DNA from: an uncultured Clostridia bacterium | GTDB lineage: Bacteria > Bacillota > Clostridia > TANB77 > CAG-508 | Assembly: GCA_934183305.1 (NCBI GenBank) | Contig: CAKPSF010000002.1 | Span: 145,395-209,394, forward strand | Length of the DNA: 64,000 nt | Reading direction: 5' to 3' | Shown: positions 14,798-39,632 of the stretch, piece after piece | Numbering within the stretch: position 1 is the first letter of the stretch | Layout: each line of letters opens with the position of its first letter | The notes under the pieces: model-generated | Databases searched by the model: none | Seen by the model: only the letters and a program-made list of their open reading frames with translations | What the model was told of the DNA's origin: nothing | Position numbers and translations under genes: made by a program

Positions 14798-15715
14798 TTA
14801 TCTTTTATATTCTTCATTTGTAAATTCTACTCTGTCTGCACTTGATACATTTGCTGTTGTTATATTTGTTCCTTTTCCTACAAATAATTTTTGATTTTCA
14901 TCTATCCTTGCTGTTTTTCCACTTTCCATTGTTGAATTACTTATATATAATTGATTATTTGTTTCTCCAGCTGAGCCTCTTAATACTAAACCTGCTGAAA
15001 GCAATGTGCATCTATCCATATACACTTTATTGTTTGAATCGTTTGCTTTACTTCCGCCTCCTATATATAAGCATCCCCAATTTCCATCGCCAACACTTTC
15101 TCCATGTTTTCCTTTATATGGTCCACTTTGTAATGTTGCATTTTCTACATATGCTTCTCCATTTTCTCCTTGTGCAAAATATATTCCTCCATGCACATAT
15201 CCATCAAATGTTCCTCCATATACATACAATTTTGCCCCAGCATTATTTTGTAATCCTGAATGTACTCCATAAACACTTCCAGAATAAAATCTCATTTCTC
15301 CACTATTACTAATTCCTATAGAATACACTTCAGCAACATGTCCACTTGAGGCATCAGCAAATACATTTGTATTTGTAATACTCATTGTGGCACCTGTTCC
15401 ATTCTCAATTCCATATGCATTGTTTTCATCAGAATTAACATTTATTTGGGTATTTGTAATAGTAGCTGTAGAGCCTTCACCTGCCTCATTATAAATTCCA
15501 TGTGCATCTTTTTTCTTAGAATCGACATTTATATTAGTATTTGTAATACTCATTGTAACATCAGTCCAATTATTAATGCCATATGCCTCGTTTTCATCGG
15601 AATTAGCATTTATATTAGTGTTTGTAACAGTAATTTTAGAGTTCGTATAATTTACTACTGTTTGTACTATTCCTTCTTTTGAATCTCCAGTTACTTCTGC
15701 TTTTTCTATATTCAT
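14798..15715 (-). CDS. C-terminal piece of frameshift-split pseudopilin-anchored beta-helix repeat protein
   Basis: Repeats ITNTNIN(A/V)xSDENxAYGI x4. Its frame is open upstream of the annotated Met and continues the upstream ORF after a +1 shift near 15747-15758. Confidence 0.7.
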   Translation of the reverse strand: MNIEKAEVTGDSKEGIVQTVVNYTNSKITVTNTNINANSDENEAYGINNWTDVTMSITNTNINVDSKKKDAHGIYNEAGEGSTATITNTQINVNSDENNAYGIENGTGATMSITNTNVFADASSGHVAEVYSIGISNSGEMRFYSGSVYGVHSGLQNNAGAKLYVYGGTFDGYVHGGIYFAQGENGEAYVENATLQSGPYKGKHGESVGDGNWGCLYIGGGSKANDSNNKVYMDRCTLLSAGLVLRGSAGETNNQLYISNSTMESGKTARIDENQKLFVGKGTNITTANVSSADRVEFTNEEYKR

Positions 15716-16649
15716 TATTCCATAATTTACTATTGAAAAGCATATTCCGTTTATTTGCAGTACATTTTACTGTAGAATTTTTAATTTGCATATTAGGTAA
15801 TGGTGTGGATTTTGATATTTTTACCCCTTGAACATTTCCATCTGCACTACTATTTGCTTCTATTACAGAACTTTCAATATTTGCATTACTTGCTTGCACT
15901 TGTAATCCATACGCATGTTTACTATTTTCAGCATATACTTCACATTTTCTCATGTAAAATTCATTACTTATTTTAACCTTTATTGATAATACTGTTCCTG
16001 AACTATTAATATTATTTACATATTCTCCACCTATCAAATTAAAGTTTTCTCCTTCTGCATCTATCAATATAAAGTTCGAAGTTATAGCATCATTAATTTT
16101 GGATTCTATTTTACTTCCTTGTAACATTCCATTTATTGTTGCTGTTGTTGATGCTCCAAAAACTATACCTGAAGTACTTGTTGTAAAGCTTAATGTATTT
16201 CCACCTAAATTTAATTCTACATTTTTATTTATTGTTAATTTATTTGCTTCTTCTGTGTTTTTTAGTAACACAACAACCACATTGTTATTTTCATCTTTAT
16301 ATATTCCTGCTACTGCATTTTCTTTTGTTGAATCTGCATTTGCTGTTGTTTCTCCGTTCACATCAGCTATTGCTTTACTTAAGGTTGTATAATATGAAAA
16401 TTCATATTTTTCTTGTAACTCTGCTACTGTTGGCATTATTTCTTGTGTATCTAGTACACCTTCATAATATTTTAATAAATCTTCTTCTCTTTTAGTCGCA
16501 TCTATATAATCTTTTTGGGCGTTTCTCGCATGCGCTATTATTCCATCTCCTGTTATTGCATTTATTGCTACTACTGCTAATATTAATAACACAACAATTG
16601 TTATTATTAATGCAATTAAGGTAATACCTTTATTCTTTTTTCGTTCCAT
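15636..16649 (-). CDS. N-terminal piece of the same split gene (pseudopilin-like N-terminus KNKGITLIALIITIVVLLILA)
   Basis: AAAGGAGGAG RBS and a strong promoter. The last ~40 residues (NKRNMLFNSKLWNNEYRKSRSNWRFKRR...) look out of frame. Confidence 0.7.
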   Translation of the reverse strand: MERKKNKGITLIALIITIVVLLILAVVAINAITGDGIIAHARNAQKDYIDATKREEDLLKYYEGVLDTQEIMPTVAELQEKYEFSYYTTLSKAIADVNGETTANADSTKENAVAGIYKDENNNVVVVLLKNTEEANKLTINKNVELNLGGNTLSFTTSTSGIVFGASTTATINGMLQGSKIESKINDAITSNFILIDAEGENFNLIGGEYVNNINSSGTVLSIKVKISNEFYMRKCEVYAENSKHAYGLQVQASNANIESSVIEANSSADGNVQGVKISKSTPLPNMQIKNSTVKCTANKRNMLFNSKLWNNEYRKSRSNWRFKRRNSTNSSKLYEL

Positions 16650-17146: not shown

Positions 17147-17177
17147 AAAATAGCTTAACATATAGTTAAGCTATTTT
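17147..17177 (-). terminator. original terminator of tRNA-Met, now separated from the gene by the prophage
   Basis: AAAATAGCTTAAC / GTTAAGCTATTTT 13-bp stem directly abutting the tRNA 3' fragment. Confidence 0.7.
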
Positions 17178-17222
17178 TGGTAGCGAAGGGGAGATTCGAA
17201 CTCTCGACCTGCCGGGTATGAA
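17178..17222 (-). repeat. att repeat copy 1: 45-bp 3' fragment of tRNA-Met
   Basis: tggtagcgaaggggagattcgaactctcgacctgccgggtatgaa is identical to 23661-23705. Confidence 0.95.
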
Positions 17223-17350
17223 TTTTGTAATTCGCAGTAGTGTATCTAAAAAGCAAATACCTAAATTGTGTTTTAAAAAATTCTTACCATATTTCTTTAC
17301 CATATTAAAAGGGTAGCCCGTAGGGTGCGGACAGCCATACGGCGCTTGAG

Positions 17351-17470
17351 TTATTTGTTAAGTTCATTGCTTACTTTATTTGTAAAATCGGTTTCTAAGT
17401 ATCTATATGTAAGTAAAATAGATAACATTAATGCTATTATAAGTACTGATATAAATAAAAGTTTTTTCAT
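17351..17470 (-). CDS. 39-aa membrane peptide downstream of the phage repressor
   Basis: GGAG RBS. MKKLLFISVLIIALMLSILLTYRYLETDFTNKVSNELNK. Followed by a GC-rich hairpin at 17305-17346. Confidence 0.4.
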   Translation of the reverse strand: MKKLLFISVLIIALMLSILLTYRYLETDFTNKVSNELNK

Positions 17471-17483
17471 CATTTTCTCCTTT

Positions 17484-17702
17484 CTATTTTGCTGGGTATT
17501 GCTTTTTTATATTAGTAATTTTTGCTATATAATCTATTGAAACTTTATAATATTCAGCATAAATTTTTATTACGTCTAAAGGCGGAACTCTTTCCCCATT
17601 TTCATATCTTATGTATGAGTTTTTTGATATATATGCTATTTTTGAACATTCTTCTTGTGTCATATCTTTATCTTCTCTTAAATCTCTTAATCTAGTTTCC
17701 AT
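17484..17702 (-). CDS. XRE-family HTH repressor (phage cI/Cro-like)
   Basis: 72 aa. LRDLREDKDMTQEECSKIAYISKNSYIRYENGERVP is an HTH_3 pattern. GAGGTG RBS. Divergent from the phage operon. Confidence 0.85.
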   Translation of the reverse strand: METRLRDLREDKDMTQEECSKIAYISKNSYIRYENGERVPPLDVIKIYAEYYKVSIDYIAKITNIKKQYPAK

Positions 17703-17732
17703 TTTTACACCTCAAAAAAATTATACAAAATT

Positions 17733-17774
17733 ACTCCATTTGGGGTTGACAAAATACCCCATTTGGAGTATTAT
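17733..17774 (+). promoter_or_regulatory. phage early promoter (TTGACA-17-TATTAT) bracketed by operator half-sites
   Basis: ACTCCATTTGGGG (17733-17745) and CCCCATTTGGAGT (17757-17769) flank the -35 at 17746-17751. The -10 is at 17769-17774. Confidence 0.65.
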
Positions 17775-17806
17775 TATTTTAGATTTTTTTATAGGAGTGT
17801 TTTATT

Positions 17807-18091
17807 ATGAAATTAAGTGAAGATTTTAAATTTTTAAATTTAAACGCAATCAGAAGAAAAGATGCTGAAAAATTAAAGCCAGAAGAACAATTTTTTTATA
17901 CTGTTAATTTATTAGACCATGATAATAATCCAGTAAGATTTTTCAGCTTTGATAATGCTGTAAATATCAGTTTAATTAAAGCTATAAACGAAGGAAAACT
18001 AAAAGGCTTACAAGATTGTCTAGTTCATTTTGAATTAGCTTTTTCTAATAACAATTGGGTAGTAAGGCTTTTAAATATAGAATTTGAATAA
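17807..18091 (+). CDS. phage hypothetical protein (position compatible with ssDNA-binding g5p-like role)
   Basis: 94-aa ORF with AGGAG RBS. First gene of the rightward phage operon. Confidence 0.6.
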   Translation: MKLSEDFKFLNLNAIRRKDAEKLKPEEQFFYTVNLLDHDNNPVRFFSFDNAVNISLIKAINEGKLKGLQDCLVHFELAFSNNNWVVRLLNIEFE

Positions 18092-18149
18092 AATTAATTG
18101 CTTTTAAGTTTGTGCTTCAAACAAGCTTTACTAAAGAAAGGAGTCAAAT

Positions 18150-18281
18150 ATGAACGAAATTGAATTATTAACCGCAATACACAGTCAATTAGGTTACATT
18201 TGTACCTTTCTTGTTTTCTTTATCATAGTTCTTTTATGCTACTTTGCATATAAGTTCTTTGATATGTTCTTTCACATTTAA
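18150..18281 (+). CDS. 43-aa phage membrane peptide
   Basis: AAAGGAG RBS. MNEIELLTAIHSQLGYICTFLVFFIIVLLCYFAYKFFDMFFHI. Confidence 0.5.
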   Translation: MNEIELLTAIHSQLGYICTFLVFFIIVLLCYFAYKFFDMFFHI

Positions 18282-18302
18282 CAAAAGAAAGGAGCTGAGC
18301 AT

Positions 18303-18476
18303 ATGGAAGAAACTGCAGCATCTACTATTTTATCTGAAATAGTAACATCTAAAATGCTTCAAGGTGTTTTAAATGAGATTACTGGTTTATTACCTATTGT
18401 TATACCTGTTATGATTTCATTCATAGCAATAAGAAAAGGTATAGCATTTGTGCAAAGTGTTTTGCATTCTGCTTAG
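18303..18476 (+). CDS. putative major coat protein (g8p-like), copy 1
   Basis: 57 aa with AAAGGAG RBS. ...KMLQGVLNEITGLLPIVIPVMISFIAIRKGIAFVQSVLHSA has one TM helix and a basic tail. Confidence 0.55.
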   Translation: MEETAASTILSEIVTSKMLQGVLNEITGLLPIVIPVMISFIAIRKGIAFVQSVLHSA

Positions 18477-18523
18477 TTTAAGAAACTAACAAAAGAAACT
18501 AACAAAAGAAAGGAGTGATTGGT

Positions 18524-18673
18524 ATGTTATCTTCAATAGTAACAGCTGATATGCTAAAAGGTGTTTTAAATGAAATTACTGGTTTATTACCTATCGTTAT
18601 ACCTGTTATGATTTCATTCATAGCAATAAGAAAAGGTATAGCATTTGTACAAAGTATTTTACACGCTGCTTAG
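18524..18673 (+). CDS. putative major coat protein (g8p-like), copy 2 (tandem paralog)
   Basis: 49 aa with AAAGGAG RBS. The core GVLNEITGLLPIVIPVMISFIAIRKGIAFVQS is identical to copy 1. Confidence 0.55.
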   Translation: MLSSIVTADMLKGVLNEITGLLPIVIPVMISFIAIRKGIAFVQSILHAA

Positions 18674-18750
18674 TATATTTTTATTCTAATCCCCCAGGGC
18701 TACATTATAAATATTTTGTAGTCCTTATTTTTTTAAGAAAGGAGAATTTC

Positions 18751-19350
18751 ATGAAGAATAAAATTTTAACTGTTTTTCTCATTGTTATATTAATTAGTTT
18801 TTGTTTCATTGGTAATAGTGCATTTGCTAGTTCAACTTTTACTTTTACTGATAGATTTGGAAACGAAAGAACTGTTCCTTCTTTTCCTGAGAGTGATATT
18901 ATTAGTAGTTCTAATTCTTTTGCTGTTGTAAATACTGGTAACTATAAAAACACTTTGTATGTTGCTACTGGTGATGGTTTTTTCTATGGTGGTGGAAGTG
19001 TTTTTTGTTCTACACCTTGCTATATGATTTATCTTGTTAATGGCGAATACGTTATTCAACCGAACACATGCACCGCTAATGCTCGTTTGTGTTCTGCTAG
19101 TGAATTATGCTATTTTTCTACTGGTTTATATGCTGACAAAGATAAATCTAGTGTAATTGTTGAACCTGGTGGAGATTTTTTTCATCTGGCTCCACTGACC
19201 CTGGAACCAATCCTGGAGAAGGTGGAGATGACTCAGGAGATAACAACAACGATAGCTGGTTTAGCAAAATTGTTAATTCCATTACTAGTTTGCCTAGTAG
19301 GATTTTGGAAGGCTTGGCAAGCTCTTTCGAAGTTATTACACAAGGCATAA
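18751..19350 (+). CDS. phage g3p-like adsorption/minor coat protein, N-terminal part (frame 0)
   Basis: Signal peptide MKNKILTVFLIVILISFCFIGNSAFA. The frame continues into 19290..19937 after a -1 shift at the T7 run 19176-19182. Confidence 0.6.
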   Translation: MKNKILTVFLIVILISFCFIGNSAFASSTFTFTDRFGNERTVPSFPESDIISSSNSFAVVNTGNYKNTLYVATGDGFFYGGGSVFCSTPCYMIYLVNGEYVIQPNTCTANARLCSASELCYFSTGLYADKDKSSVIVEPGGDFFHLAPLTLEPILEKVEMTQEITTTIAGLAKLLIPLLVCLVGFWKAWQALSKLLHKA

Positions 19351-19937
19351 AGGGATTAGCTGATTTACTTAAATATATTAATCCCTTTGATGAAAATTTT
19401 ATTTTAAAAGGTATTATTGAAACTATTGGAAATATTTTAAGTTATATTAATCCATTTAGCGAGAACTTTTTTGGTTGGAAATTAATTGAGCTTTTTGGAA
19501 ACTTACTACAAAAGCTTTTTATTCCTTCAGAAGAGTCTGTAAATAATCTTGTTGATAGCGTTAAATCTAAATTTGCCTTTATTGATTATATTAAAAGTTC
19601 TGTTAATGACATTAATAGTATTTTAAATGGTAGTGTTCCTGCTCCATCTTTAACAATTCATGTTTCAGATAGTTCTTTTACTACTGCTCAAGATATAAAA
19701 GTTTTAGATTTAACCTGGTATAAACAATTCAAAGAATTTGGAGATAAAATTATTACTGGTTTTATTTATGCTTTATTTATCTGGAGGATTTATATTGGAT
19801 TGCCAAATATTATTTCTGGTGCTGGTAGTACTATAAATGATGTTCCGGCCGAGGTTAGTGATATTCAAGCTTATGCTAAATTTGGATTTGGTCGTGCTAC
19901 TACTACAAAACGAGGAAAGGGGAATTTGAGAAATTGA
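19290..19937 (+). CDS. phage g3p-like protein, C-terminal part (-1 frame)
   Basis: The -1 frame is open from 19182 and reads SSGSTDPGTNPGEGGDDSGDNNNDSW (Gly/Ser/Asp linker), then a C-terminal domain with a TM helix. Confidence 0.6.
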   Translation: MPSRILEGLASSFEVITQGIKGLADLLKYINPFDENFILKGIIETIGNILSYINPFSENFFGWKLIELFGNLLQKLFIPSEESVNNLVDSVKSKFAFIDYIKSSVNDINSILNGSVPAPSLTIHVSDSSFTTAQDIKVLDLTWYKQFKEFGDKIITGFIYALFIWRIYIGLPNIISGAGSTINDVPAEVSDIQAYAKFGFGRATTTKRGKGNLRN

Positions 19938-20185
19938 TAGTTAATGGTATTTTATTAATTTTACAGGGTATTGTTAATATTTTATTAACTCCCCTTACGC
20001 CTTTGAATTGGCTTGCTGATACAGCAGTAAAAATATCTGTAATTTCGGATTTTATTAATATTGTTGCTTTTGTTTTACCTTGGAAGAATATTTTACCTAT
20101 ATTTATTTTTATATCAGCAGCATTCTTGTTTAGAGCCATTGTAGCTTTAATAAAAACTATTTGGGATTTATTACCTGTTTTATAA
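19934..20185 (+). CDS. phage minor coat/membrane protein (g6p-like)
   Basis: 83-aa hydrophobic ORF. Its TTG start overlaps the upstream TGA (TTGA). Confidence 0.55.
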   Translation: MIVNGILLILQGIVNILLTPLTPLNWLADTAVKISVISDFINIVAFVLPWKNILPIFIFISAAFLFRAIVALIKTIWDLLPVL

Positions 20186-20197
20186 TTGGAGTTTATT

Positions 20198-20353
20198 ATG
20201 TTTATTTTTATTATTATATTTTTTATTATTTTTGTTATTAGTTTTGTTTATTTTTTTTATAAAATTAAGATGTTAGAGGATGATGTTGAAAGCTTATATG
20301 ATAATTATATTCGTTACATAGAAAATAGCTTTAGGAGGAATAAAAATGCTTAG
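20198..20353 (+). CDS. 51-aa phage membrane peptide
   Basis: GGAG RBS. N-terminal MFIFIIIFFIIFVISFVYFFY. Overlaps the Zot-like gene start. Confidence 0.45.
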   Translation: MFIFIIIFFIIFVISFVYFFYKIKMLEDDVESLYDNYIRYIENSFRRNKNA

Positions 20354-21215
20354 TATATTTTTTACAGTATTAGAAGGTATTTTTCTTATGTTAAAATGGC
20401 CTTTATATATTTCACTTTCTTGTTTTGCTTTGTTTTTAGTTTTATGTGCCTTTTGGTTTTTATTTTATACATTTAAAGGAAAAAGATTAAAAAAAGGTTC
20501 TAGAAGATTCATTAAACAAGATGGATTTTTTAAGAAGATTTTTTATAAATTACCCAAACAAATAGTTGAAGATATATACGATAAAAATCCTGATTATTTT
20601 AACTATCAAGGTGTAATTATCTTTGAAGGTGTTCAAGGCTCTGGAAAAACTATGTCTATGATTGAATTTGCTATGCGTATTCAAGAAGAATATCCTAAAT
20701 GTCTTTGTACATCTAATTTAGCTTATAAACATGAAAATGTTCCTTTAGAAGATTGGAAAATGTTATTGAATTATAAAAATGATATATATGGTGTATTGGT
20801 TTTAATTGATGAACTACAAAATTGGTTTTCAAGTAATGACAGCAAAAATTTTCCGCCTGATATGCTTTCTATTATAACTCAAAACCGAAAAAATAGACGT
20901 ATTATATTAGGAACTTCACAGGTTTTTAGTATGTTAGCAAAACCTATTAGAACCCAAACCACCGAGCTACGTAGGTGTACTACGTTGCTCGGTGTACTGA
21001 CTATCGTTAGAAGATTTAGGCCAATTTTTGATAGTTCTGGAGAATTAAAAGAAATTAAAAGATTAGGTTCGTATTTTTTTATTCAAAATAAAAAATTAAG
21101 AGAAGCTTACGATACTTATAAAGTAATTGATAGACTTTCAGAGGTTGGCTTCCAGGAACTTAAAAACTTAATTGAGAATAATACTATTAATTTAATTAAT
21201 TATGGAAAGAAGTAG
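20346..21215 (+). CDS. Zot/g1p-like phage assembly ATPase
   Basis: Two N-terminal TM helices, Walker A GVQGSGKT and Walker B VLVLIDELQNWF. AGGAGG RBS. Confidence 0.75.
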   Translation: MLSIFFTVLEGIFLMLKWPLYISLSCFALFLVLCAFWFLFYTFKGKRLKKGSRRFIKQDGFFKKIFYKLPKQIVEDIYDKNPDYFNYQGVIIFEGVQGSGKTMSMIEFAMRIQEEYPKCLCTSNLAYKHENVPLEDWKMLLNYKNDIYGVLVLIDELQNWFSSNDSKNFPPDMLSIITQNRKNRRIILGTSQVFSMLAKPIRTQTTELRRCTTLLGVLTIVRRFRPIFDSSGELKEIKRLGSYFFIQNKKLREAYDTYKVIDRLSEVGFQELKNLIENNTINLINYGKK

Positions 21216-21223
21216 GTGTTTGT

Positions 21224-21412
21224 ATGTTAAATCCTTATTTTAGAATTTTATTGTTTTTTGGTTTTATGTCTTTTATTGATATTTTTGTTGATAGCCTTTG
21301 CCAACATTTATCTGCCAAACGTGCTCATTATAATTGTTCAAAATGTAGTAATTGGCGTTGTATGAGTTGTTATTGTAAAAATAAAGAAAGGAATTATAAA
21401 AATGAAAAATAA
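21224..21412 (+). CDS. phage small Cys-rich membrane protein
   Basis: 62 aa with a TM helix, then CSKCSNWRCMSCYC. AGGTG RBS. Confidence 0.5.
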   Translation: MLNPYFRILLFFGFMSFIDIFVDSLCQHLSAKRAHYNCSKCSNWRCMSCYCKNKERNYKNEK

Positions 21413-21596
21413 AGATTTTATAAATTTAGTTTTATATGGTTTAGGTATTTGTGTATTAACTTTTATATTTAATTATATTTTTAACATTTATGGAGTAAAA
21501 ACATTGCATAGATGTATTTGTATGTTAGCTATTGGTTTTTCAATTTATTTATATGTACCTTTTTATAAGTTATTTTTTAAAGAGTTACATAAATAA
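21402..21596 (+). CDS. phage small membrane protein
   Basis: 64 aa with two TM helices. Overlaps the upstream gene by 11 nt. Confidence 0.5.
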   Translation: MKNKDFINLVLYGLGICVLTFIFNYIFNIYGVKTLHRCICMLAIGFSIYLYVPFYKLFFKELHK

Positions 21597-21600
21597 AAAT

Positions 21601-21628
21601 TCGGAGGGTTCTTAGTAACACCCTCCGA
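21601..21628 (+). other. GC-rich hairpin upstream of rep (candidate replication origin / packaging signal)
   Basis: TCGGAGGGT-tcttagtaac-ACCCTCCGA, a 9-bp stem with no T-run after it. A second imperfect hairpin lies at 21630-21647. Confidence 0.4.
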
Positions 21629-21674
21629 GAGTTCCACCAGTGAAACTTTTTACAAAAATTTGGAGTAAAAATAT

Positions 21675-22703
21675 ATGATTGATACTATTAAAATTTATAC
21701 TATGATTAATAAAAATACATATGATAAAATTTACAACAATTCTATTATAAAGTCAAGTTATAATAAAAAAGATGGAGAAATTTATTACGAAATTGTAAAC
21801 GATAAATTAGAAGGTTCTTATAGCTCTAGTTTGTCGGTTCGTGTTGGTTCTGGTGTTAAATATAGATTTGTAAATATGTATTATTTAGAAATTGAAGGAA
21901 GTTATCACAAAATTATTAATGGCTATAATTCTCATAATGGCTATTATAATTTGCAAAGTATTGTTAAATGGCTTATAGGTGCTGTTGAGAATTCTTATAA
22001 TATTTCTTTGCCAAAATTTAATCATTGGTTCTTACAACGTCTTGATGTAGCTGTTTGTTTTGATTTAGAAAATAATGATACTGTTCGTAAGTATATTAAT
22101 AACTTGGCTTTATGTAGTTATGCTCGTCGTAATATTAAACATTATCAGGACGAAAGTATTTATTGTTCTGGTTCAACTACTACACTAAAGATATATAATA
22201 AGTTGTTAGAATTTAAAAAGCACGATATGAAAAAATTTTTCAATTCAAATTTTAATATTGATAGCTATATCAATAAAATAAAAGGCTTTATTAGATTTGA
22301 ATGTGAAATTAAAAAGAAAAAATTAGAAGATATTTATAATAAAAAATATATTAGAATTAAAAATGTAAGATATGAAGATTTTTATGAAATTTGGAAGTGT
22401 GAGTTTATGAAATTATTAAATTTTTTTGAAAGTGATTTAACGATTGTTAGAAATAAAGAAGATATTAAAAGAAGATTATATACTTGTTATGGAAATAGAA
22501 AAGCTAATATACTTTATACTTTTTATAGCTCTATTATTTTAGACGGTATTACAGAAGTTAAGAAAAATGTTCCTAAAGTAACATTTTATAGACATATTAA
22601 AGATTTGAAAGCTTGTAATATTGATTTATCACAAAAATATACTTTAACTGCTGTTAATGATACTATTGACTTTAATCCATTTGAGTGGAAAGAGGTTGTA
22701 TAA
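21675..22703 (+). CDS. rolling-circle replication initiator (Rep_trans / RstA-like)
   Basis: 342 aa. WFLQRLDVAVCFDLE, TLKIYNKLLEFKKHD and FIRFECEIKKKKL fit the Rep_trans motif pattern as I recall it. Confidence 0.7.
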   Translation: MIDTIKIYTMINKNTYDKIYNNSIIKSSYNKKDGEIYYEIVNDKLEGSYSSSLSVRVGSGVKYRFVNMYYLEIEGSYHKIINGYNSHNGYYNLQSIVKWLIGAVENSYNISLPKFNHWFLQRLDVAVCFDLENNDTVRKYINNLALCSYARRNIKHYQDESIYCSGSTTTLKIYNKLLEFKKHDMKKFFNSNFNIDSYINKIKGFIRFECEIKKKKLEDIYNKKYIRIKNVRYEDFYEIWKCEFMKLLNFFESDLTIVRNKEDIKRRLYTCYGNRKANILYTFYSSIILDGITEVKKNVPKVTFYRHIKDLKACNIDLSQKYTLTAVNDTIDFNPFEWKEVV

Positions 22704-23630
22704 ATGAAATGTTCTCAAGTTTTAGATAAATTCATTATGCAAAAAAGTGTTGAGGGAGATACTCTTGCTACAATTAGGCATTATTCTACCCATATTCAAT
22801 TTTTTATTAACTTTTATGGTGACAAAGATATAAATAATATTACTTATAAAACTTATCAGGAGTATATCTTCTATCTAAAAAATAAAGAAAAAGCTTCTTC
22901 TGGTTTTATTGGTAAAGGTTGCAAATTATCTAGTAGAACTATTAAAACATATGCTTCAGCATTAAAAACATTTTTAAGTTGGGCATATACTAATAAATAT
23001 TTGTATTTTAATATTGCAGCAAATATAAAAATGCCTAAATATAGCAAAAAAGTAATTACTATTTTATCTATTAATGATATTGATTGCTTAATTAATCATT
23101 TTGATACTACTACATATATTGGCATTAGGGATTTATTTATTGTTTCACTAATGTTAGACGCTGGTCTTAGATTAAGTGAGGTTGCTTATTTACACGTTTT
23201 TGATTTTGATATTGGTAAGAATGTTATAAAAGTATTTGGTAAGGGGCAAAAAGAAAGATATGTGCCTTTAACTCCATTTATTTTAGATTGTTATAAAAAG
23301 TACAAAAAAGCTTTTATTAATTATTTTAATAGATACCCTGAGTATGATGAAATAATATTTAAAAATATTGACGGTACTGATATAACTAGCAATGGTATTT
23401 CTTTAATGTTTAGACGTCTTAGACATAATATGAAAAACAAATTACATCCACACTTATTAAGACATACATTTGCGACATATTTTCTATTAAATGGCGGTGA
23501 TATTGAAACACTTAAAATTATTCTAGGTCATACAACTATATATATGAGCGAACAATATTTACATTTGGCCAATCAACTAAATTTACAAAATATGTCCCGT
23601 TTTTCTCCATTATCTAATATGAATAAATAA
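22704..23630 (+). CDS. tyrosine recombinase / phage integrase
   Basis: GLRLSEV (Arg), HPHLLRHTFATY (H-x-x-R) and LGHTTIYMSEQYLH (His...Tyr). Adjacent to the att/tRNA. Confidence 0.9.
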   Translation: MKCSQVLDKFIMQKSVEGDTLATIRHYSTHIQFFINFYGDKDINNITYKTYQEYIFYLKNKEKASSGFIGKGCKLSSRTIKTYASALKTFLSWAYTNKYLYFNIAANIKMPKYSKKVITILSINDIDCLINHFDTTTYIGIRDLFIVSLMLDAGLRLSEVAYLHVFDFDIGKNVIKVFGKGQKERYVPLTPFILDCYKKYKKAFINYFNRYPEYDEIIFKNIDGTDITSNGISLMFRRLRHNMKNKLHPHLLRHTFATYFLLNGGDIETLKIILGHTTIYMSEQYLHLANQLNLQNMSRFSPLSNMNK

Positions 23631-23631
23631 A

Positions 23632-23658
23632 AAAAGTCCTATTTTTAGGACTTTTCTT
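23632..23658 (+). terminator. terminator after integrase
   Basis: AAAAGTCCT-attttt-AGGACTTTT. Confidence 0.7.
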
Positions 23659-23660
23659 AT

Positions 23661-23737
23661 TGGTAGCGAAGGGGAGATTCGAACTCTCGACCTGCCGGGT
23701 ATGAACCGGATGCTCTAGCCAACTGAGCTACTTCGCC
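23661..23737 (-). tRNA. tRNA-Met (CAT); could be Ile2 if lysidinylated
   Basis: rc GGCGAAGTAGCTCAGTTGGCTAGAGCATCCGGTTCATACCCGG...CTTCGCTACCA. The 3' 45 nt (23661-23705) is att repeat copy 2. Confidence 0.9.
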
Positions 23738-24223: not shown

Positions 24224-27200
24224 TTAACAGAAGTTCACTCTTTCTTGTCCCATTAGCTCTTTAAATTCTTCTAATATTTCTTTATTCAATAATATTGTTC
24301 CACAGTCTAGTACCTTTTCTCCATCTATTACTTGTACTTTTGTATTGTTTCTTTCTCCATTAAAAAATTTAAGTGCACCACGTAGTTTTGCTTTTTCGTG
24401 TTCATCTAAATTTGTAATATTAATTTGCAATATTTTATTACGTGTTGTATCTTGATTTATATCTTCTATATTATCACTTAATTCTGTTATTTCTCTTGCA
24501 ACAATTTTTACATCTTCATCTTCTCTTATACTTAGGCGTCCATCTACTAAAACTACATTATCCACCATTAATAAGTTTGCAGCTTTTTGATACGCATTTT
24601 CAAACACAATTATTTCAGCTGTTCCATACAAGTCTTCTATTGTAACAAATGCCATAAGTTTATTACTTTTTGTATATTTCTTTTTTATGCTTGATATTAT
24701 TCCCGCATATTTTACAAATTGTCCATCCTTATATCTTGTACTTTCACCTGTTGTATCCACTTCTTCTTTTATTTCTGCCATTTTCATTGTATCGATGTTT
24801 GTAGACTTTATTATTTTCTCTCTAATTTTTTCTAATGGGTGACCTGAAATATATATACCAAGCATTTCTTTTTCCATTGAAAGTAGCTCTTTATCTTCAA
24901 ATTCTGGCTGTTCTGAAAAATTATATTTTAACTCTTCTTTATCGTTTTCTTCCATACTGTCTAGATCAAACATGCTTACTTGTCCCTTTAAATTCTTTTT
25001 TGCTGAATCTTGTATTGTATCAATTATTCCTTCAAAAGATTCTAAAAGTGTTCTTCTTGTTTGTCCAAATTCGTCAAATGCTCCTGCTTTTATTAAACTT
25101 TCAATACATTTTCTATTTACAGATTCCTCTTGTATTCTTTCACAAAAATCTGTAAAACTTAAATATTGTCCATTTTTTTCACGCTCTGCCACTATGCTGT
25201 CTACTACTGCTATTCCAACATTCTTTATGCTTCCTAGACCAAATCTAATTTTTCCACCATCAACAGTAAATTTAGTTAAGCTTCTATTTATATCTGGCTT
25301 TAGAATCTCAATATTCATTCTTCTACATTCGTCTACATATAACGGAATTTTATCCAAATTTCCCAAATAACTATTAAGTGTCGCAGCCATAAATTCTTCT
25401 GGATAATATGCTTTTAAATATGCTGTTCTATATGATACAACAGCATATGCAGCTGCATGAGATTTGTTGAAAGCATATTTTGCAAACTCTGCCATTTCAT
25501 CAAATATTTTATTTGCAGATACTTCGTCTATTCCGTTTCTTACACAGCCAGGTACTACAACATTACCATTTTCGTCCACTTGACCATGTATAAATATTTC
25601 TCTTTCTTTAGCCATTATATCTAGCTTTTTCTTTCCCATAGCACGACGAACTAAATCTGCTCTTCCTAATGAATAACCAGCTAAATCTCTAACTATTTGC
25701 ATAACTTGCTCTTGATAAACCATACAGCCATATGTTACTTTAAGTATTGGTTCTAGTGATGGATGTGTATATACTGCATGTTCTGGATCCAATTTATTTT
25801 GTATATATCTTGGTATTTGATCCATAGGTCCTGGACGATACAAAGAAACACCGGCTATAATATCTTCTAGACTATCTGGTTTTAATTCTTTCATAAAGTT
25901 AGTCATACCAGCACTTTCGAACTGGAATATACCAATTGTTTTTCCTTCTCCCCAAAGTTTAAATACCTTTGGATCGCTCATCTCTTTATCAAATTCTGCG
26001 TCTATTCCTCTATTTTTCTTTACTAAGTTTATTGCATCTTGAATAACTGTAAGAGTTCTTAGCCCTAAGAAGTCCATTTTTAACAATCCTAGTTGTTCTA
26101 GAATTGTCATTGTATATTGTGTTGATATAGCTCCATCATTTACATATAAAGGTACATATGTATCTACTGGGTCTTTTGTTATAACTACACCACACGCATG
26201 AGTTGATGCTTGTCTTGGCATTCCTTCCAATCCCATAGCTATATCTAACAATTTGTGTATTTCTTCATTGTTTTCATATAATTCTCTTAATTCTCTATTT
26301 TGTTCCATTGCTTTGGCTATTGTCATATGAATTGCAAAAGGAACCATTTTTGCAAGTTTATCTGTTTCTGCATATGGAAAATCTAATGCTCTTCCAACAT
26401 CACGAATAACCATTCTTGCAGACATTGTTCCAAAAGTTATAATTTGAGAAACGTGGTCTCTTCCATATTTTCTTGCAACATAATCTATAACCTCTTGTCT
26501 TCTTTCATAACAAAAATCAACGTCAAAGTCTGGCATGCTTATTCTATCTGGATTTAAAAATCTCTCAAAAAGCAAATTATATTTTATTGGGTCTATATCT
26601 GTAATTTCAATAGCGTATGCAACAATAGAACCTGCACCAGAGCCACGTCCTGGTCCAACTGGTATACCATTTGATTTGGCCCAGTTTATGAAATCCCAAA
26701 CAATTAAGAAATAATCTACATATCCCATTTTTTTAATTACAGATATCTCATATTCCATTCTGTCTAGTATTTCTTTTGGTGGCACTTCTCCATATCTTTT
26801 TCTGATACCATCATCACACAATTTCTTAAAGAAATCATAATGTGTTGGAAACTCTGCTGGCACTTCATAATTTGGAAGTATTGTATGTCCAAATTCAAAT
26901 TCAACATTACATTTTTCAGCAATTTTAACAGTGTTTTCTAATGCTTCTGGTAAATTTGGAAAAAACTCTTTTACTTCTTCTGGACTCTTTATATAAAAAT
27001 CATCTGTTTCAAATTTCATTCTATCTATATCAGACATTTTTTTGCCTGTTTGAATACATAAAAGTACTTCGTGATTATATGCATCTTCTCTTCTTGTATA
27101 ATGCGCATCATTTGTGGCAACTAATGGTATATTTAGTTTTCTAGATAGTTCAACCATTTTTTGATTAACTAATGCTTGTTCTTTCAAAGTATTTGTTTGA

Positions 27201-27721
27201 ATTTCTAAATAATAATCTTCGCCAAATAAATTTTTATACCATAGTGCTGTCTCCTCTGCTTTTTGCATATCTCCTGAAAGTATTGCTTGTGGCACACTTC
27301 CTGCTAAACAAGCACTACAACAAATTAAACCTTCATGATATTTTTCCAAAGTTTCTAAGTCTATTCTTGGTTTATAATAATATCCTTCTGTAAAGCCTAT
27401 TGAAACCATTTTACTTAAATTTTTATATCCATTATTATCTTTTGCAAGTAATATTAAATGGTTATATTTATTATCAATTCCTGCTTCTTTATCAAAACGA
27501 GTACGTGGAGCAACATACACTTCACAACCAATAATAGGCTTTATACCCTCTTCTTTACAAGCTTTATAGAACTCTATTGCTCCATACATAACTCCATGGT
27601 CCGTAATTGCAATAGCATCCATTCCAAGCTCTTTTGCAACTTTAGGTAACTCTTTTATTCTATTTGCTCCATCAAGCAAGCTATACTCACTATGTATATG
27701 TAAGTGTACAAAATCTCCCAT
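24224..27721 (-). CDS. dnaE: DNA polymerase III alpha subunit (DnaE type, N-terminal PHP domain)
   Basis: MGDFVHLHIHSEYSLLDG PHP motif. About 1165 aa. GGGAGA RBS before the ATG at 27721; the track start 27751 is TTG. Confidence 0.95.
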   Translation of the reverse strand: MGDFVHLHIHSEYSLLDGANRIKELPKVAKELGMDAIAITDHGVMYGAIEFYKACKEEGIKPIIGCEVYVAPRTRFDKEAGIDNKYNHLILLAKDNNGYKNLSKMVSIGFTEGYYYKPRIDLETLEKYHEGLICCSACLAGSVPQAILSGDMQKAEETALWYKNLFGEDYYLEIQTNTLKEQALVNQKMVELSRKLNIPLVATNDAHYTRREDAYNHEVLLCIQTGKKMSDIDRMKFETDDFYIKSPEEVKEFFPNLPEALENTVKIAEKCNVEFEFGHTILPNYEVPAEFPTHYDFFKKLCDDGIRKRYGEVPPKEILDRMEYEISVIKKMGYVDYFLIVWDFINWAKSNGIPVGPGRGSGAGSIVAYAIEITDIDPIKYNLLFERFLNPDRISMPDFDVDFCYERRQEVIDYVARKYGRDHVSQIITFGTMSARMVIRDVGRALDFPYAETDKLAKMVPFAIHMTIAKAMEQNRELRELYENNEEIHKLLDIAMGLEGMPRQASTHACGVVITKDPVDTYVPLYVNDGAISTQYTMTILEQLGLLKMDFLGLRTLTVIQDAINLVKKNRGIDAEFDKEMSDPKVFKLWGEGKTIGIFQFESAGMTNFMKELKPDSLEDIIAGVSLYRPGPMDQIPRYIQNKLDPEHAVYTHPSLEPILKVTYGCMVYQEQVMQIVRDLAGYSLGRADLVRRAMGKKKLDIMAKEREIFIHGQVDENGNVVVPGCVRNGIDEVSANKIFDEMAEFAKYAFNKSHAAAYAVVSYRTAYLKAYYPEEFMAATLNSYLGNLDKIPLYVDECRRMNIEILKPDINRSLTKFTVDGGKIRFGLGSIKNVGIAVVDSIVAEREKNGQYLSFTDFCERIQEESVNRKCIESLIKAGAFDEFGQTRRTLLESFEGIIDTIQDSAKKNLKGQVSMFDLDSMEENDKEELKYNFSEQPEFEDKELLSMEKEMLGIYISGHPLEKIREKIIKSTNIDTMKMAEIKEEVDTTGESTRYKDGQFVKYAGIISSIKKKYTKSNKLMAFVTIEDLYGTAEIIVFENAYQKAANLLMVDNVVLVDGRLSIREDEDVKIVAREITELSDNIEDINQDTTRNKILQINITNLDEHEKAKLRGALKFFNGERNNTKVQVIDGEKVLDCGTILLNKEILEEFKELMGQERVNFC

Positions 27722-27767
27722 CGCTATTCTCCCTATATAATTTTCAAACAAATTATATTACATTTGC

Positions 27768-27897: not shown

Positions 27898-28155
27898 TTA
27901 TTTAAGCTCTAAAATCTCAAGCTTATTTAAAACTACACCTTCCAGCTTCATACTTCCTTGTATAAAAATTAACATATTATTTTGCAATTTACTATAACAA
28001 TAATCTGCATTTTCATTGTATGCTTTTACTGTTACTATTCCTGCATTATTTAATAATTCCAAATCAAATATTGCAACAGAATAGTTTGAACCTTCTACAA
28101 TGAATTCAAATTTTATATTACTACAAACTTTTCCTAATAGAAAACATATATTCAT
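27898..28155 (-). CDS. 85-aa OB-fold/SSB-like mini protein
   Basis: AAGGAGAG RBS. FLLGKVCSNIKFEF...VAIFDLELLNN...VTVKAYNENADYCY...IFIQGSMK resembles a minimal SSB-type OB-fold pattern (by eye). Confidence 0.55.
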   Translation of the reverse strand: MNICFLLGKVCSNIKFEFIVEGSNYSVAIFDLELLNNAGIVTVKAYNENADYCYSKLQNNMLIFIQGSMKLEGVVLNKLEILELK

Positions 28156-28241
28156 AGTCTCTCTCCTTATATAATATACATAAGATACATATATTCAAAT
28201 ATTTACTAATATGTATCTTATTGATTCATTTTTACCTATAA

Positions 28242-28421
28242 TCAGGAAGGAATAAATCTCTTTAATACTAATACTTTACTGTATGCATTCCTTAAATTTA
28301 ATAACTGATTTAATAATAACGCATCTTTTCCTCTTGCAATGTAGAAACTTCCAGCATTAACTAATACTATGCTACCTTTACTTTTTATTTGTAACAATCC
28401 AAGCATTTTACTAAATCCCAT
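28242..28421 (-). CDS. 59-aa MutS-domain-I-like mini protein
   Basis: AAAGGAGG RBS 7 nt before the ATG at 28421. IVLVNAGSFYIARGKDALLLNQLLNL parallels the MutS N-terminal segment [29 protein letters not shown]. Confidence 0.5.
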   Translation of the reverse strand: MGFSKMLGLLQIKSKGSIVLVNAGSFYIARGKDALLLNQLLNLRNAYSKVLVLKRFIPS

Positions 28422-28471
28422 TTTAAGCCTCCTTTGGTATTTATAGAGGCGCATTTTTGTGCTGAAAGCAC

Positions 28472-28497
28472 AAAAAAATGCGCCCCGTTAGGGGCGC
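28472..28497 (-). terminator. GC-rich intrinsic terminator after pilin-FGE gene A
   Basis: Minus strand GCGCCCC-UAAC-GGGGCGC followed by AUUUUUUU. Confidence 0.8.
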
Positions 28498-28666
28498 CCC
28501 GTTAGGGTAATTTTTAATATCTTCGCAAAATCTATTATCATAGATTTTGTGTGATTTTAAAAATTACCTTTTTAACGTATTGCATTCGTTAAAATCTCTC
28601 GACTTTAACTTTTCTATTTAAAATTACTTCCAGCAAAATATAGTATTTCGCCCTCAGCGTTCAGTC

Positions 28667-29941
28667 CTACATATATAAAAGTGGACGGAAAGAAATGCCA
28701 ACGTTAGCACTGGTCGTGAAGATGCCGCCACGATAGCTCGTATAGTAGCGGCTGAAGTTGTAAAAACCACCACGTTGAGTGCAAGGAGAGTTGGAAAGGC
28801 TAGAGGTTTCTGTTGACCATTCAATACAATTGCTTGCCATATCATATACATTACATATTGTATCTTTTGTTCCACTATAACTTGTTCCTGATGTTCCTGT
28901 ATTTGCTAAACTACTATTTACACTTGTTTTACTTGCATATGTGCTATTATCTCCAAATTCTTGGAAAAAGATTATTGCTGTATCCCATGCATAACTATTT
29001 ACTAAATCACTTTCATATGGTTTATTTGTATACATATTTTGGCATCTCTCTGATGCTTGTAATTGTGTTACACAATTCCATACTTGTGAATTTGCTTTAC
29101 TTACTAACTTTAGTTTTTTTCCACTTTCTGCTACATATCCTGTCCAATCTATAGAACTACTACTATTTGATTTACTTATATTTGAAGCGTCATAATTTTC
29201 TACTCTTGCTTCATATCTTGCTATATAATAACCCCCACTTGTATTTGCTTTTGTACAAAATTCTGCTATATTTTTTGCTATTGCATTACTTTGGGTTGTA
29301 TTATATTCCGTATAGTTATAAGAATTCCTCATTATAGAAGTTGGGGTTGCATATGCACTCGCATTTTGTGCTACTGTATACGTTCCATCCTCATTTTTAG
29401 TAAAATTTTCATATCTTCCCAAATTTATTGTTTTTGCATTTGCTTCTGTTTTTGCTACATCTGTATATATTTTTTCTACTGGTATCCATACAAATTGATT
29501 GCCTGCTGTTTCTACTTGTGTATCTTCTACTACTATTCCTTTTGTTACATCTATATCATCTGCTGTATAACTAGTTGTACTATCTACTAATATTTTAAAT
29601 CCTGCTGGTAACATTATTTTATTTCCATACTCGTCTGTTAATGGTGTATTATCTGTTGTACTTAATACTTTATTTAAGCTATCTTTTAATGTTTTTGCTC
29701 CTGAACCTCCACCATTTATTTTTGAACTTTCTGTATCTAAATATTCTGAATATTCATCTAATCTTGCTTGTTCATTTGTTTGTGCTTCTGAATATTTTGT
29801 CTTTGCATTTTGTGCATGATTTAGTATTCCATTTCCACTTACTGCACTTATTGCTACTACTGCTAAGATTAATAACACAATTATTGTGATTATTAAGGCA
29901 ACTAGTGTAATACCTTTGTTCTTTTTTAGTTTTTGTTTCAT
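28667..29941 (-). CDS. pseudopilin-like N-terminus + FGE-sulfatase/C-type-lectin-like C-domain surface protein (paralog A)
   Basis: MKQKLKKNKGITLVALIITIIVLLILA. C-terminal GGYYIARYEAR, ICNVYDMASNCIEWSTE and RGG...ISFRPLLYM fit the FGE/SUMF1 pattern. 424 aa. Confidence 0.75.
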   Translation of the reverse strand: MKQKLKKNKGITLVALIITIIVLLILAVVAISAVSGNGILNHAQNAKTKYSEAQTNEQARLDEYSEYLDTESSKINGGGSGAKTLKDSLNKVLSTTDNTPLTDEYGNKIMLPAGFKILVDSTTSYTADDIDVTKGIVVEDTQVETAGNQFVWIPVEKIYTDVAKTEANAKTINLGRYENFTKNEDGTYTVAQNASAYATPTSIMRNSYNYTEYNTTQSNAIAKNIAEFCTKANTSGGYYIARYEARVENYDASNISKSNSSSSIDWTGYVAESGKKLKLVSKANSQVWNCVTQLQASERCQNMYTNKPYESDLVNSYAWDTAIIFFQEFGDNSTYASKTSVNSSLANTGTSGTSYSGTKDTICNVYDMASNCIEWSTETSSLSNSPCTQRGGFYNFSRYYTSYRGGIFTTSANVGISFRPLLYM

Positions 29942-38363: not shown

Positions 38364-39632
38364 CTACATATATAAAACCGGGCGAAAACCAAGGTTGTCG
38401 TAAGCATCGTACGTTTTGTTACTGCGACGAATACTCGTGTAATAAGAGGCATTGTAGCAAAAGCCTCCACGTTTATTTGAAGGGCTTTCTGAAAAACTAG
38501 ATGTTTCTGTTGACCACTCATAGCAATTGCTTCCCATATCATAAACGTTACATATTACATCTACTTCTCCAGTATAAATTGTTCCAGATGTTCCTGTGAC
38601 AGCTAAATAATTATTCACACTTTTTTTGCTCGCATATGCTGCATTGTCTCCAAATTCTTGGAAGAATATTATTGCTGTATCCCACGCATAACCATTCACT
38701 AAATCACTTTCAAAAGGCTTATTGGTGTACATAGTTTGACATCTTTCTGAAGCTTGCGGTTGTGTTACATAATTATACACATAATTATCTGCTTTTAATG
38801 TCACTTGAGCTAATTCATCATTTTTAGATTTTCTTTCTGTTTCAGTTCCTACTCTTGCTTCATATCTTCCTATATAGTAACCTCCACTTGCATTAGTTTT
38901 GGTGCAAAATTCCCCTATGTTTTGGGCTATTACATTGCTTTGAGGTGTAGTATATTCTGTATAGTTGTAAGATCCATTATTTATAGGAATTATTTTTTCA
39001 TATTCATTTGCATTTTGGGCTACTGTATATTCTCCATTTGTTTTAGTAAAATTTTCATACCTTCCCAATGTTATTGTTTTGGCATTCTCTTCTGTTTTTT
39101 CTGTATCTGTATATATTTTTCCTACTGGTATCCACACAAATTGATTGCCTGCCGTTTCTAGTTGTGTATCTTCTACTACTATTCCTTTTGTTATATCTAT
39201 ATCATCCGCTGTATAATTTGTTGTGTTATCTACTATTATTTTAAAACCAGCAGGTACTTTTATCTTATTTCCAAAGTCATCTATCAACACTATATTTTCA
39301 CTTGTACTTAACACCTTATTCAAATTATCTTTTACTCTTGCCACATTATTTATTTTTGAGTTTTCTCTGTCTAGCTTTTCCAAATATTCGCCTAATTGTG
39401 TGTGTTCATTTATTTGTGAACCTGAATATTGGCTTCTTGCATTACTTGCATAGTTAAGCATTTTATTTCCTGTTACTGCGCCTATTACTACTACTACCAA
39501 TATTAATAATACAATAATTGTAATTATTAAGGCAACTAATGTCATGCCTTTATTGCGTGCAGGCAAAAAGCCTGTCTCTTCATATTTATTGTTTTTTGAA
39601 TATATAGACTTTCTTTTTAGTTTTTGATTCAT
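38364..39632 (-). CDS. pseudopilin-like N-terminus + FGE-sulfatase/C-type-lectin-like C-domain surface protein (paralog B)
   Basis: ...ARNKGMTLVALIITIIVLLILV. GGYYIGRYEAR, ICNVYDMGSNCYEWSTE, RGG...LGFRPVLYM. 422 aa, about 75% identical to paralog A outside the C-terminal 30 residues. Confidence 0.75.
   Translation of the reverse strand: MNQKLKRKSIYSKNNKYEETGFLPARNKGMTLVALIITIIVLLILVVVVIGAVTGNKMLNYASNARSQYSGSQINEHTQLGEYLEKLDRENSKINNVARVKDNLNKVLSTSENIVLIDDFGNKIKVPAGFKIIVDNTTNYTADDIDITKGIVVEDTQLETAGNQFVWIPVGKIYTDTEKTEENAKTITLGRYENFTKTNGEYTVAQNANEYEKIIPINNGSYNYTEYTTPQSNVIAQNIGEFCTKTNASGGYYIGRYEARVGTETERKSKNDELAQVTLKADNYVYNYVTQPQASERCQTMYTNKPFESDLVNGYAWDTAIIFFQEFGDNAAYASKKSVNNYLAVTGTSGTIYTGEVDVICNVYDMGSNCYEWSTETSSFSESPSNKRGGFCYNASYYTSIRRSNKTYDAYDNLGFRPVLYM

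Follow-up and report, generated by a model that had tools for sequence, protein, structure and literature searches.

A variable region at the 3' end of a pilin-like gene in uncultured Clostridia as the probable fossil of a deleted diversity-generating retroelement

In the window (the whole 64-kb stretch of DNA analysed), the 3' end of a gene designated here as gene A is most readily explained as the fossil variable region (VR) of a diversity-generating retroelement (DGR) of a known type. The cassette would formerly have lain adjacent to gene A on its downstream side and have been deleted, and the VR, designated VR_A, would have been frozen since; we place the probability of this reading at about 0.8. 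The mechanism is that of a standard DGR of the type carrying a small MutS-like gene (MSL) and avd, with a target putatively of the CLec/FGE class, and the system would now be dead.

The window is chromosomal DNA with a GC content of 28%. Besides DnaE, its genes include those for MnmA, a DHH phosphoesterase, sigma-70, DnaG, CarD and TyrRS, and the relatives of the locus are uncultured Clostridia from human-gut metagenomes. The features discussed below are listed in Table 1. The product of gene A begins with a pilin-like signal/anchor helix, continues with a central beta domain and closes with an FGE/CLec-like domain, at whose C-terminal end the VR lies.

Table 1 Features of the gene A locus and related features in the window.
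Feature	Position	Strand	Description
Target gene A	28667..29941	minus	clean ORF, 424 aa
Variable region (VR_A)	28680..28807	minus	homologous over a 128-nt core to the TR (1884-2011) of L134, an intact cassette
IMH-like invariant VR 3' end	28680..28693	minus	TCTTTCCGTCCACT, identical in TR and VR
Post-VR motif	28646..28666	minus	GACTGAACGCTGAGGGCGAAA, immediately past the stop codon of gene A
Tandem GC-rich hairpin units, terminator-like	28480..28508	minus	CCCTAACGGGGCG x2, separating gene A from the cassette remnant
MSL 5' stub	28292..28421	minus	first ~43 codons; promoter/RBS kept
Deletion junction	28292..28296	minus	5-nt microhomology TTTAA, overlap of both L134 matches
SSB/OB-fold-like ORF	27898..28155	minus	intact, 85 aa
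DnaE	24224-27751		window neighbour
Paralog B	38364..39632	minus	422 aa, 67% identical to A; VR about 38377-38504

The base composition of gene A changes at its 3' end. Among the VR codons, 20 of 43 end in C, compared with 16 of the 378 codons in the remainder of the gene (Fisher P = 3.5e-13). The A content is 0.186 in the VR codons and 0.462 in the remainder, and the GC content is 0.496 and 0.297, respectively. When the gene was scanned in sliding windows of 40 codons, the number of C-ending codons stayed at 0-4 along most of its length and reached 19 in the last full window, where A fell from ~0.45 to 0.19 and GC rose from ~0.30 to 0.50. The adenine-poor, C-ending tail described in a previous reading of this DNA, which was made from the sequence alone (hereafter, the sequence-only reading), is thus real, and the segment that it delimited (28682-28807) coincides almost exactly with the stretch homologous to a template repeat (TR). 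That reading also took an overlapping minus-strand open reading frame (ORF), 28654..28875, to be spurious; the ORF is present in another frame, and nothing backs its status as a gene.

The TR used for comparison with VR_A comes from a close relative and not from the source genome. This relative is represented by a contig of 2,309 nt from sample SRR13434610, L134, whose shared flanks are 98.5% identical to the window. When the L134 TR was aligned with VR_A, 28 mismatches were found, 26 of which fall on TR adenines (binomial P = 3.6e-9 with 39% adenine in the TR core), and the adenine-derived substitutions span 28695-28803. The remaining two mismatches are synonymous C->T changes, TAC->TAT at 28742 and GCC->GCT at 28706. 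The latter may be a TR allele rather than drift after the deletion, because it is also found in the VRs of L133 and L158. Read in the frame of gene A, the TR encodes TYSNSNNPCTKRGGNYNNSNNYTSNRNNNNTTNANDNNSFRP and is rich in AAC and AAT codons, and the third codon positions of VR_A are kept as in AAC/AAT. Judged from this alignment, 28680-28807 is a genuine DGR variable region, and the proposal of such a region at the C-terminus of gene A was borne out, since the TR of the relative accounts for nearly all of the differences as adenine substitutions.

The VR ends in an IMH-like sequence. Right after TCTTTCCGTCCACT, the VR reads TTTATATATG but the TR reads CTAATATTAT, a divergence that is expected for IMH versus IMH*, and TCTTTCCGTCCACT also closes the VRs of other paralogs. 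On the model of the Bordetella phage BPP-1 DGR, TCTTTCCGTCCACT probably functions as the IMH. The post-VR motif is common to the paralogs with TR-fitting VRs, namely gene A, the copies in L129 and L133 and two copies in L132, and is partially present in L128 and L124; it may take part in target recognition. No significant hairpin was found in this motif relative to shuffled sequence (z = -0.5). A cruciform at this position was considered and is not claimed, because the motif folds no better than shuffled sequence. As the IMH-like end and the post-VR motif are both intact, VR_A may remain competent for retrohoming.

Contig L134 was reached through a search with a reverse transcriptase (RT) HMM, which led to a degraded MSL-RT fusion downstream of one paralog in contig L132; a search with this fragment then gave the full-length RT P0244. 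L134 carries an intact cassette with MSL at 85-495, bAvd at 499-867, RT at 851-1864, TR at about 1877-2011 and an SSB-like ORF starting at 2177. The RT matches PF00078 and has the motifs IGNYTSQ and YMDD, bAvd matches PF22296, and MSL matches PF01624 MutS_I with 25.4 bits, above the cutoff. From the flank identity on this short (2.3 kb) contig, the L134 cassette probably also adjoins dnaE in the chromosome. The exact L134 TR was not found in the GTDB representative genomes and JGI metagenomes, and its codon-degenerate form gave no match in the GTDB representative genomes; these negative results are weak evidence of absence. A pattern of the VR scaffold in which the variable positions were set to N returned one related VR (L133) and no TR. 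An all-degenerate 'X or A' pattern derived from the VR was discarded as a TR probe; it matched poly-A and low-complexity DNA.

Comparison with L134 resolved what is left of the cassette in the window. L134 1-214 corresponds to window 28507..28292 (98.6% identity), and L134 2036-2309 corresponds to window 28296..28023, which reaches into the 85-aa ORF (98.5%). The intervening 1,826 bp of L134 (215-2040), which comprise the 3' part of MSL, bAvd, RT and TR, are missing from the window. The identical junction sequence is found in L145 and L148, and the spacing from the target to the SSB-like ORF is equal in L141, L143 and L146. Contig L134 begins with the CCCTAACGGGGCG hairpin units that lie between gene A and the remnant in the window. 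The cassette remnants occupy 27898-28454, beside gene A. The listed ORF 28242..28454 is the MSL stub running on into unrelated sequence; the stub was matched by tblastn with residues 1-34 of the L134 MSL at 97% identity and is 43-47% identical to the MSL N-termini of the more distant loci L124 and L125. Both the stub and the 85-aa ORF are homologous to their L124/L125 counterparts (E about 1e-13 to 1e-14).

No RT was found in the 64-kb window with an RT HMM on the six-frame translation together with blastn and tblastn with the intact cassette, and the blastn/tblastn searches gave no Avd there either. A-tolerant scans of the window and blastn with the L134 TR returned just the VR itself. The sequence-only reading, which saw neither an RT nor a template repeat in the window, was correct on both. 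With RT, TR and Avd absent and MSL cut to ~43 codons, no functional DGR system was found within the 64 kb.

Cassette loss was also observed at a second site. A paralogous cassette at another chromosomal position, in L132 and L135, has undergone different deletions that left a 235-aa MSL-RT fusion, P0241. This fusion was present on 10 contigs, including a 507-kb scaffold that carries a near-clonal copy of the gene A locus. RTs at least 88% identical to P0241 were found only on contigs of 1.8-2.3 kb, and not on the long contigs of the species. As the deletions in the two paralogous cassettes differ, the cassette has been lost at least two times in the species.

We propose the following course of events. 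A cassette would have been situated directly downstream of gene A in the order target, MutS-like gene, bAvd, RT, TR and SSB-like ORF. By analogy with characterised DGRs, VR_A would have been made by mutagenic retrohoming, in which adenine-mutagenised TR cDNA replaced the 3' end of gene A. The deletion would then have occurred between two TTTAA microhomologies and have taken the bulk of the cassette, after which the VR would have been frozen; it would now be evolving as ordinary DNA, as its two synonymous C->T changes suggest.

Subsequently, VR_A was compared among strains. An exact lookup of the 85-aa protein gave 19 contigs, of which L141 (the 507-kb scaffold), L143 and L146 reach gene A; because the lookup demanded an identical neighbour protein, the set is biased towards close relatives. 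In these three contigs, which come from three other samples and all have the deletion, 142 nt across the VR were identical to the window, and the flanks diverged from the window by 0.1% in L141, 0.8% in L146 and about 1.2-1.7% in L143. Samples that contain the locus include ERZ28613985, ERZ28614474 and ERZ27287327. Hypervariability confined to the VR was looked for among the strains, and 0 VR differences were found across the 4 samples, in a comparison of three assembled consensus contigs, a level at which minority variants are invisible. The sequence-only reading had suggested a comparison of strains for hypervariable codons and had named invariance of the segment as one half of what would speak against it; VR_A was invariant in all four samples. 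Since ~1% divergence would place only about 1 ordinary difference in a stretch of 128 nt, this invariance speaks against hypermutation and not for unusual conservation. As a positive control, loci with an intact cassette, an identical RT (P0220) and flanks 99.3-99.4% identical were compared, and 27 of 73 and 31 of 61 differences were located inside the 141-nt VR. The contrast between 27-31 VR differences in the control and none in VR_A speaks against any diversification of VR_A after the deletion. One VR is common to four samples at the other cassette locus, where L132 differs; the VRs of other paralogs are likewise identical between samples.

These data bear on the proposal, made in the sequence-only reading, that a DGR acts on VR_A in trans. 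VR_A would then still be an active target, diversified by an intact DGR elsewhere in the genome, such as one on a prophage. Distant targets were indeed reached in this lineage, as at least five dispersed paralogs have VRs that fit a single TR; furthermore, VR_A retains its IMH-like end and the post-VR motif, and an intact cassette persists in close relatives (L134). However, VR_A is identical in 4 samples at flank divergences of 0.1-1.5%, similar to those at which intact-cassette loci differ at many VR positions, the VRs of the other paralogs are identical between samples as well, and the near-clonal 507-kb scaffold has both known cassette loci in a degraded state. A TR of the matching type was not found in the GTDB representative genomes or the JGI metagenomes. 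The target VR of locus 1 does differ between L132 and L135 in spite of the P0241 remnant that both have in common. We rejected this difference as a sign of trans activity: the divergence of 6.4% extends over the entire gene, a pattern that indicates replacement of the allele and not mutation limited to the VR. The proposal of trans action was not upheld: the cognate cassette adjoined gene A and was deleted, leaving its remnants beside the gene. We consider continued diversification in trans improbable, and in the remainder of the genome, beyond the 64 kb read, probably no other DGR acts on VR_A.

It is very unlikely that the cassette was never present at the window site, in which case L134 would represent a mobile DGR inserted into an ancestrally empty site and VR_A would have been written from another locus. 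DGRs move horizontally and are sporadic among strains, as described by Wu et al. (2018, PMC5758913), and the chromosomal context of L134 lies outside the 2.3-kb contig. However, the window retains the MSL promoter/RBS and coding start, which runs into unrelated sequence, at one end, and at the other the spacer that follows the TR and the SSB-like ORF that ends the cassette, and an empty site would not hold both cassette ends. Moreover, the 5-nt microhomology at the junction is typical of a deletion, and the second, different deletion in the paralogous L132 cassette retains parts that are absent from the window. The preserved MSL stub together with the microhomology thus points to a deletion in the window lineage and not to an insertion in L134. 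A composition shift unrelated to any DGR, whether through a GC-richer segment gained by recombination or horizontal transfer or through a local codon bias, is refuted for practical purposes by the concentration of mismatches on TR adenines, the AAC/AAT-like third positions and the cassette remnants adjoining gene A, even though recombination does act on this gene, whose centre is mosaic between near-identical strains.

The fossil VR of gene A belongs to a wider set of targets. Paralogs from strains of the same species have a DNA-level scaffold in common with gene A and carry NNC or NNT at the variable codons. When the L134 TR was compared with other paralogs of the species, 20/20, 27/27, 24/25, 24/25 and 26/30 mismatches were at adenines; as one TR fits several paralogs, the intact DGR once served several dispersed targets. 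Paralog B, in the window itself, shows 48 mismatches with the L134 TR, only 23 of them at adenines, and has neither the IMH-like end nor the GACTGAACGCTGA motif that follows the stop codon in the other copies. Its VR is an older, decayed one.

Gene A has more than 7,000 homologs (about 7,300), with several copies on single contigs. None of the 120 homologs listed had a precomputed Pfam domain, and an exact-match lookup of protein P0001 returned no match. Another gene in the window, 15636..16649, has the N-terminus alone in common with gene A. When the gene A protein was used to find related loci in contigs, 7 distant relatives were obtained, two of which (L124 and L125) have intact cassettes. 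In these two, a near-repeat of the 3' end of the gene lies a few kb downstream, and the mismatches fall on adenines of the downstream copy in 25 of 25 cases in L124 and 25 of 27 in L125. A small MutS_I-like ORF, an Avd-like ORF and a reverse transcriptase lie between the target and the repeat. In L149 and L154, from two further species, the order is target, MSL (PF01624), bAvd (PF22296), RT (PF00078), TR and an SSB-like ORF of 84-87 aa, and the TR/VR pairs of these species have 16/17 and 26/27 mismatches at adenines. As far as these loci indicate, the gene A family is a DGR target family elsewhere.

The N-terminus of the gene A protein (KKNKG followed by ITLVALIITIIVLLILAVVAI) resembles a type IV prepilin leader and alpha-1 helix. 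The N_methyl domain PF07963 scored 16.1 bits in this protein, below the cutoff of 21.2, and was weakly detected in 66 of 68 homologs. A profile of the family searched against PDB sequences matched only pilin N-termini (E 1e-4 to 4e-3), and an AF2 model of the gene A protein (pLDDT 78) showed a long N-terminal helix followed by beta-rich domains. Glu was not found at +5 after the predicted cleavage site; the position is occupied by Ala (A15), which is nearly invariant in the family. Since the canonical Glu5 is replaced by Ala, membership of the pilins is unproven; some tip or minor pilins are known to lack Glu5. No prepilin peptidase or pilus assembly genes were found among the window ORFs scanned.

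With regard to the C-terminal domain, the sequence-only reading had suggested a CLec/FGE fold. The top Foldseek matches of the model were TvpA, Mtd and FGE, at values below significance (E 0.06-0.2, TM 0.17-0.36). The FGE-sulfatase domain PF03781 was detected below threshold in 22 of 68 homologs and gave no match in the gene A protein, in which the motifs NC.EWSTE, RGG and FRP resemble FGE-sulfatase motifs. The suggestion is consistent with the identity of the top structural matches; their E values and the sub-threshold Pfam scores show it only weakly, and the assignment made from the model is not established. We infer that the gene A protein could be a surface or pilus-borne (pilus-tip) ligand-binding adhesin.

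The SSB-like ORF was the final cassette gene in every intact relative examined, and its homologs follow RT-TR in L124, L125, L149 and L154. It is conserved at the cassette end in five genomic contexts. PF00436 SSB was weakly detected in 4 of 5 SSB-like ORFs (best E = 1.1e-5), and a profile of the SSB-like ORF gave no significant match against the PDB (SSB at E 0.35). A single-sequence AF2 model of the 85-aa ORF had a pLDDT of 43 and was left out of the fold search. The main text of Wu et al. (2018, PMC5758913) names Avd, HRDC, MSL and CH1 as accessory classes, and the SSB-like ORF does not appear there. The most novel lead of this study, and one that may interest DGR specialists, is the presence of this gene at the end of MSL-type cassettes.

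A broader interpretation is offered tentatively, and we regard it as somewhat doubtful. The window could be what is left of a five-gene DGR lineage in gut Clostridia, composed of a pilin-like target, MutS-like gene, bAvd, RT, TR and SSB/OB-fold ORF, in which the SSB-like ORF would be an undescribed accessory factor, perhaps handling single-stranded cDNA. The targets would be modular adhesins with type IV pilin-like features, forming a large family that lacks annotation, with several of its >7,000 homologs per genome, and repeated within-species deletion of the cassette would fix one receptor-binding variant at every dispersed target.

As the DGR mechanism is already known, the present results are of value for annotation and evolution. 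A gene tail that is poor in adenine and rich in NNC codons can flag a dead DGR target, and a missing nearby RT does not necessarily imply action in trans. Intact, differently deleted and fully deleted cassettes coexist in closely related gut Clostridia, with the VRs fixed afterwards. These observations are relevant to surveys in which DGR targets are counted or DGR activity is deduced solely from sequence signatures. Furthermore, the very large Pfam-less family of pilin-like DGR targets in human-gut Clostridia may interest DGR specialists.

TvpA carries a lipoprotein signal and Mtd has a phage tail-fibre context, whereas the gene A protein has a type IV pilin-like N-terminus. As in Mtd (Bordetella phage, PDB 1yu1) and TvpA (Treponema denticola, PDB 2y3c), its VR forms the last ~40 residues. 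A pilin-type domain is a rare DGR target in the survey literature (PMC11661182), and our literature search for DGRs combined with type IV pilins found no paper. In gut Bacteroides type V pili, a commensal DGR diversifies the ligand-binding end of the pilus adhesin (bioRxiv 10.1101/2024.11.15.621889). The present case resembles these adhesins, as described there, in being a DGR target with pilus-type features in a gut commensal; it differs in that the host belongs to another phylum, being one of the uncultured Clostridia, the pilus class is another one, with a type IV pilin-like N-terminus (membership being unproven), and the system is dead here.

DGRs whose cassettes contain MSL have been described before, as architecture D of Wu et al. 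(2018, NAR 46:11, PMC5758913). In agreement with that description, the intact relatives carry a small MutS_I-like gene, avd, a DGR-type RT and a TR on one strand beside the target, and the target has a C-terminal VR with adenine-specific mismatches and an IMH-like end. Unlike architecture D, the window has lost its cassette except for the MSL 5' stub and the downstream SSB-like ORF. A sporadic DGR distribution was reported for Legionella pneumophila Corby versus other strains (Wu et al. 2018, PMC5758913), and 'inactive' DGRs were described by Roux et al. (2021, PMC8144416). The present case is like these, as far as they are described there, in that the DGR occurs in some close relatives only and the VRs are without current diversification. 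It differs from them in that the loss is resolved to the base pair and is observed as two independent events, each in one of a pair of paralogous cassettes within a single species.

The second copy of gene A, the pilin-like DGR target, in the window (paralog B) showed a composition shift of the same kind as gene A, though a weaker one (13 of 40 codons ending in C). When its variable region (VR) was compared with the template repeat (TR) of L134, a contig of a close relative, 25 non-adenine differences were counted, and both the IMH-like end and the post-VR motif were absent from this VR. The VR of paralog B is a decayed, older one. Separately, a third gene with the pilin-like N-terminus of gene A, followed by a tandem-repeat ORF, was observed at window 14798-16649 (minus strand). 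The N-terminus of this gene (15636-16649, minus) matched PF07963 just above threshold and its body was unrelated to gene A; the ORF after it (15353-15641, minus) carries tandem repeats of 81-87 nt.

A 12-kb part of the window was compared with L141, a near-clonal scaffold from another sample. The two were 99.5% identical, and 48 of the 57 differences fell in the middle of gene A (window 29037-29585), while none lay inside its VR. A comparable cluster in the centre of gene A was also found in L143, another contig with the same cassette deletion. This clustering has the look of mosaic recombination, or of gene conversion between paralogs, at work on the central domain.

The gap separating gene A from what is left of the cassette contains two GC-rich hairpin units in tandem. 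No further copy of the motif was found in the window, and short cassette assemblies (L134) break exactly at these units. At a different locus, the species once held a second DGR cassette, paralogous to that of the window, of which only P0241, a 235-aa fusion ORF of the MutS-like (MSL) gene and the RT, is left. P0241 was kept on 10 contigs from several samples and arose by deletions distinct from the one in the window. We also observed a probable filamentous-phage-like element (window 17174-23737), integrated at tRNA-Met, the 3' end of which is present as a 49-nt direct repeat (17174-17222 and 23657-23705).

Coordinates of features in the window and in related contigs
Feature	Sequence	Positions	Strand	Remark
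Paralog B	window	38364-39632	-	VR about 38377-38504; adjoins carD
P0241, remnant of second DGR cassette	L132	19974-20681		same species, different locus
P0241	L135	10001-10708		same species, different locus
Two tandem hairpin units, CCCTAACGGGGCG	window	28480-28508	-	
Zot-like ATPase, phage-like element	window	20346-21215		
G2P/Phage_CRI replication protein, phage-like element	window	21675-22703		
Tyrosine integrase, phage-like element	window	22704-23630		
SSB/OB-fold-like ORF	window	27898-28155	-	intact, rest of cassette deleted
SSB/OB-fold-like ORF	L124	3960-4238		after TR
SSB/OB-fold-like ORF	L125	3083-3355		after TR
SSB/OB-fold-like ORF	L149	6368-6622		after TR
SSB/OB-fold-like ORF	L154	6409-6672		after TR

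Finally, a small SSB/OB-fold-like ORF (84-92 aa) was the terminal gene, 3' of the TR, in each intact cassette examined of this DGR lineage, and it was found in five chromosomal contexts, all different. Four of the five ORFs matched PF00436, weakly (best E=1.1e-5). This ORF may be a DGR accessory gene so far undescribed.
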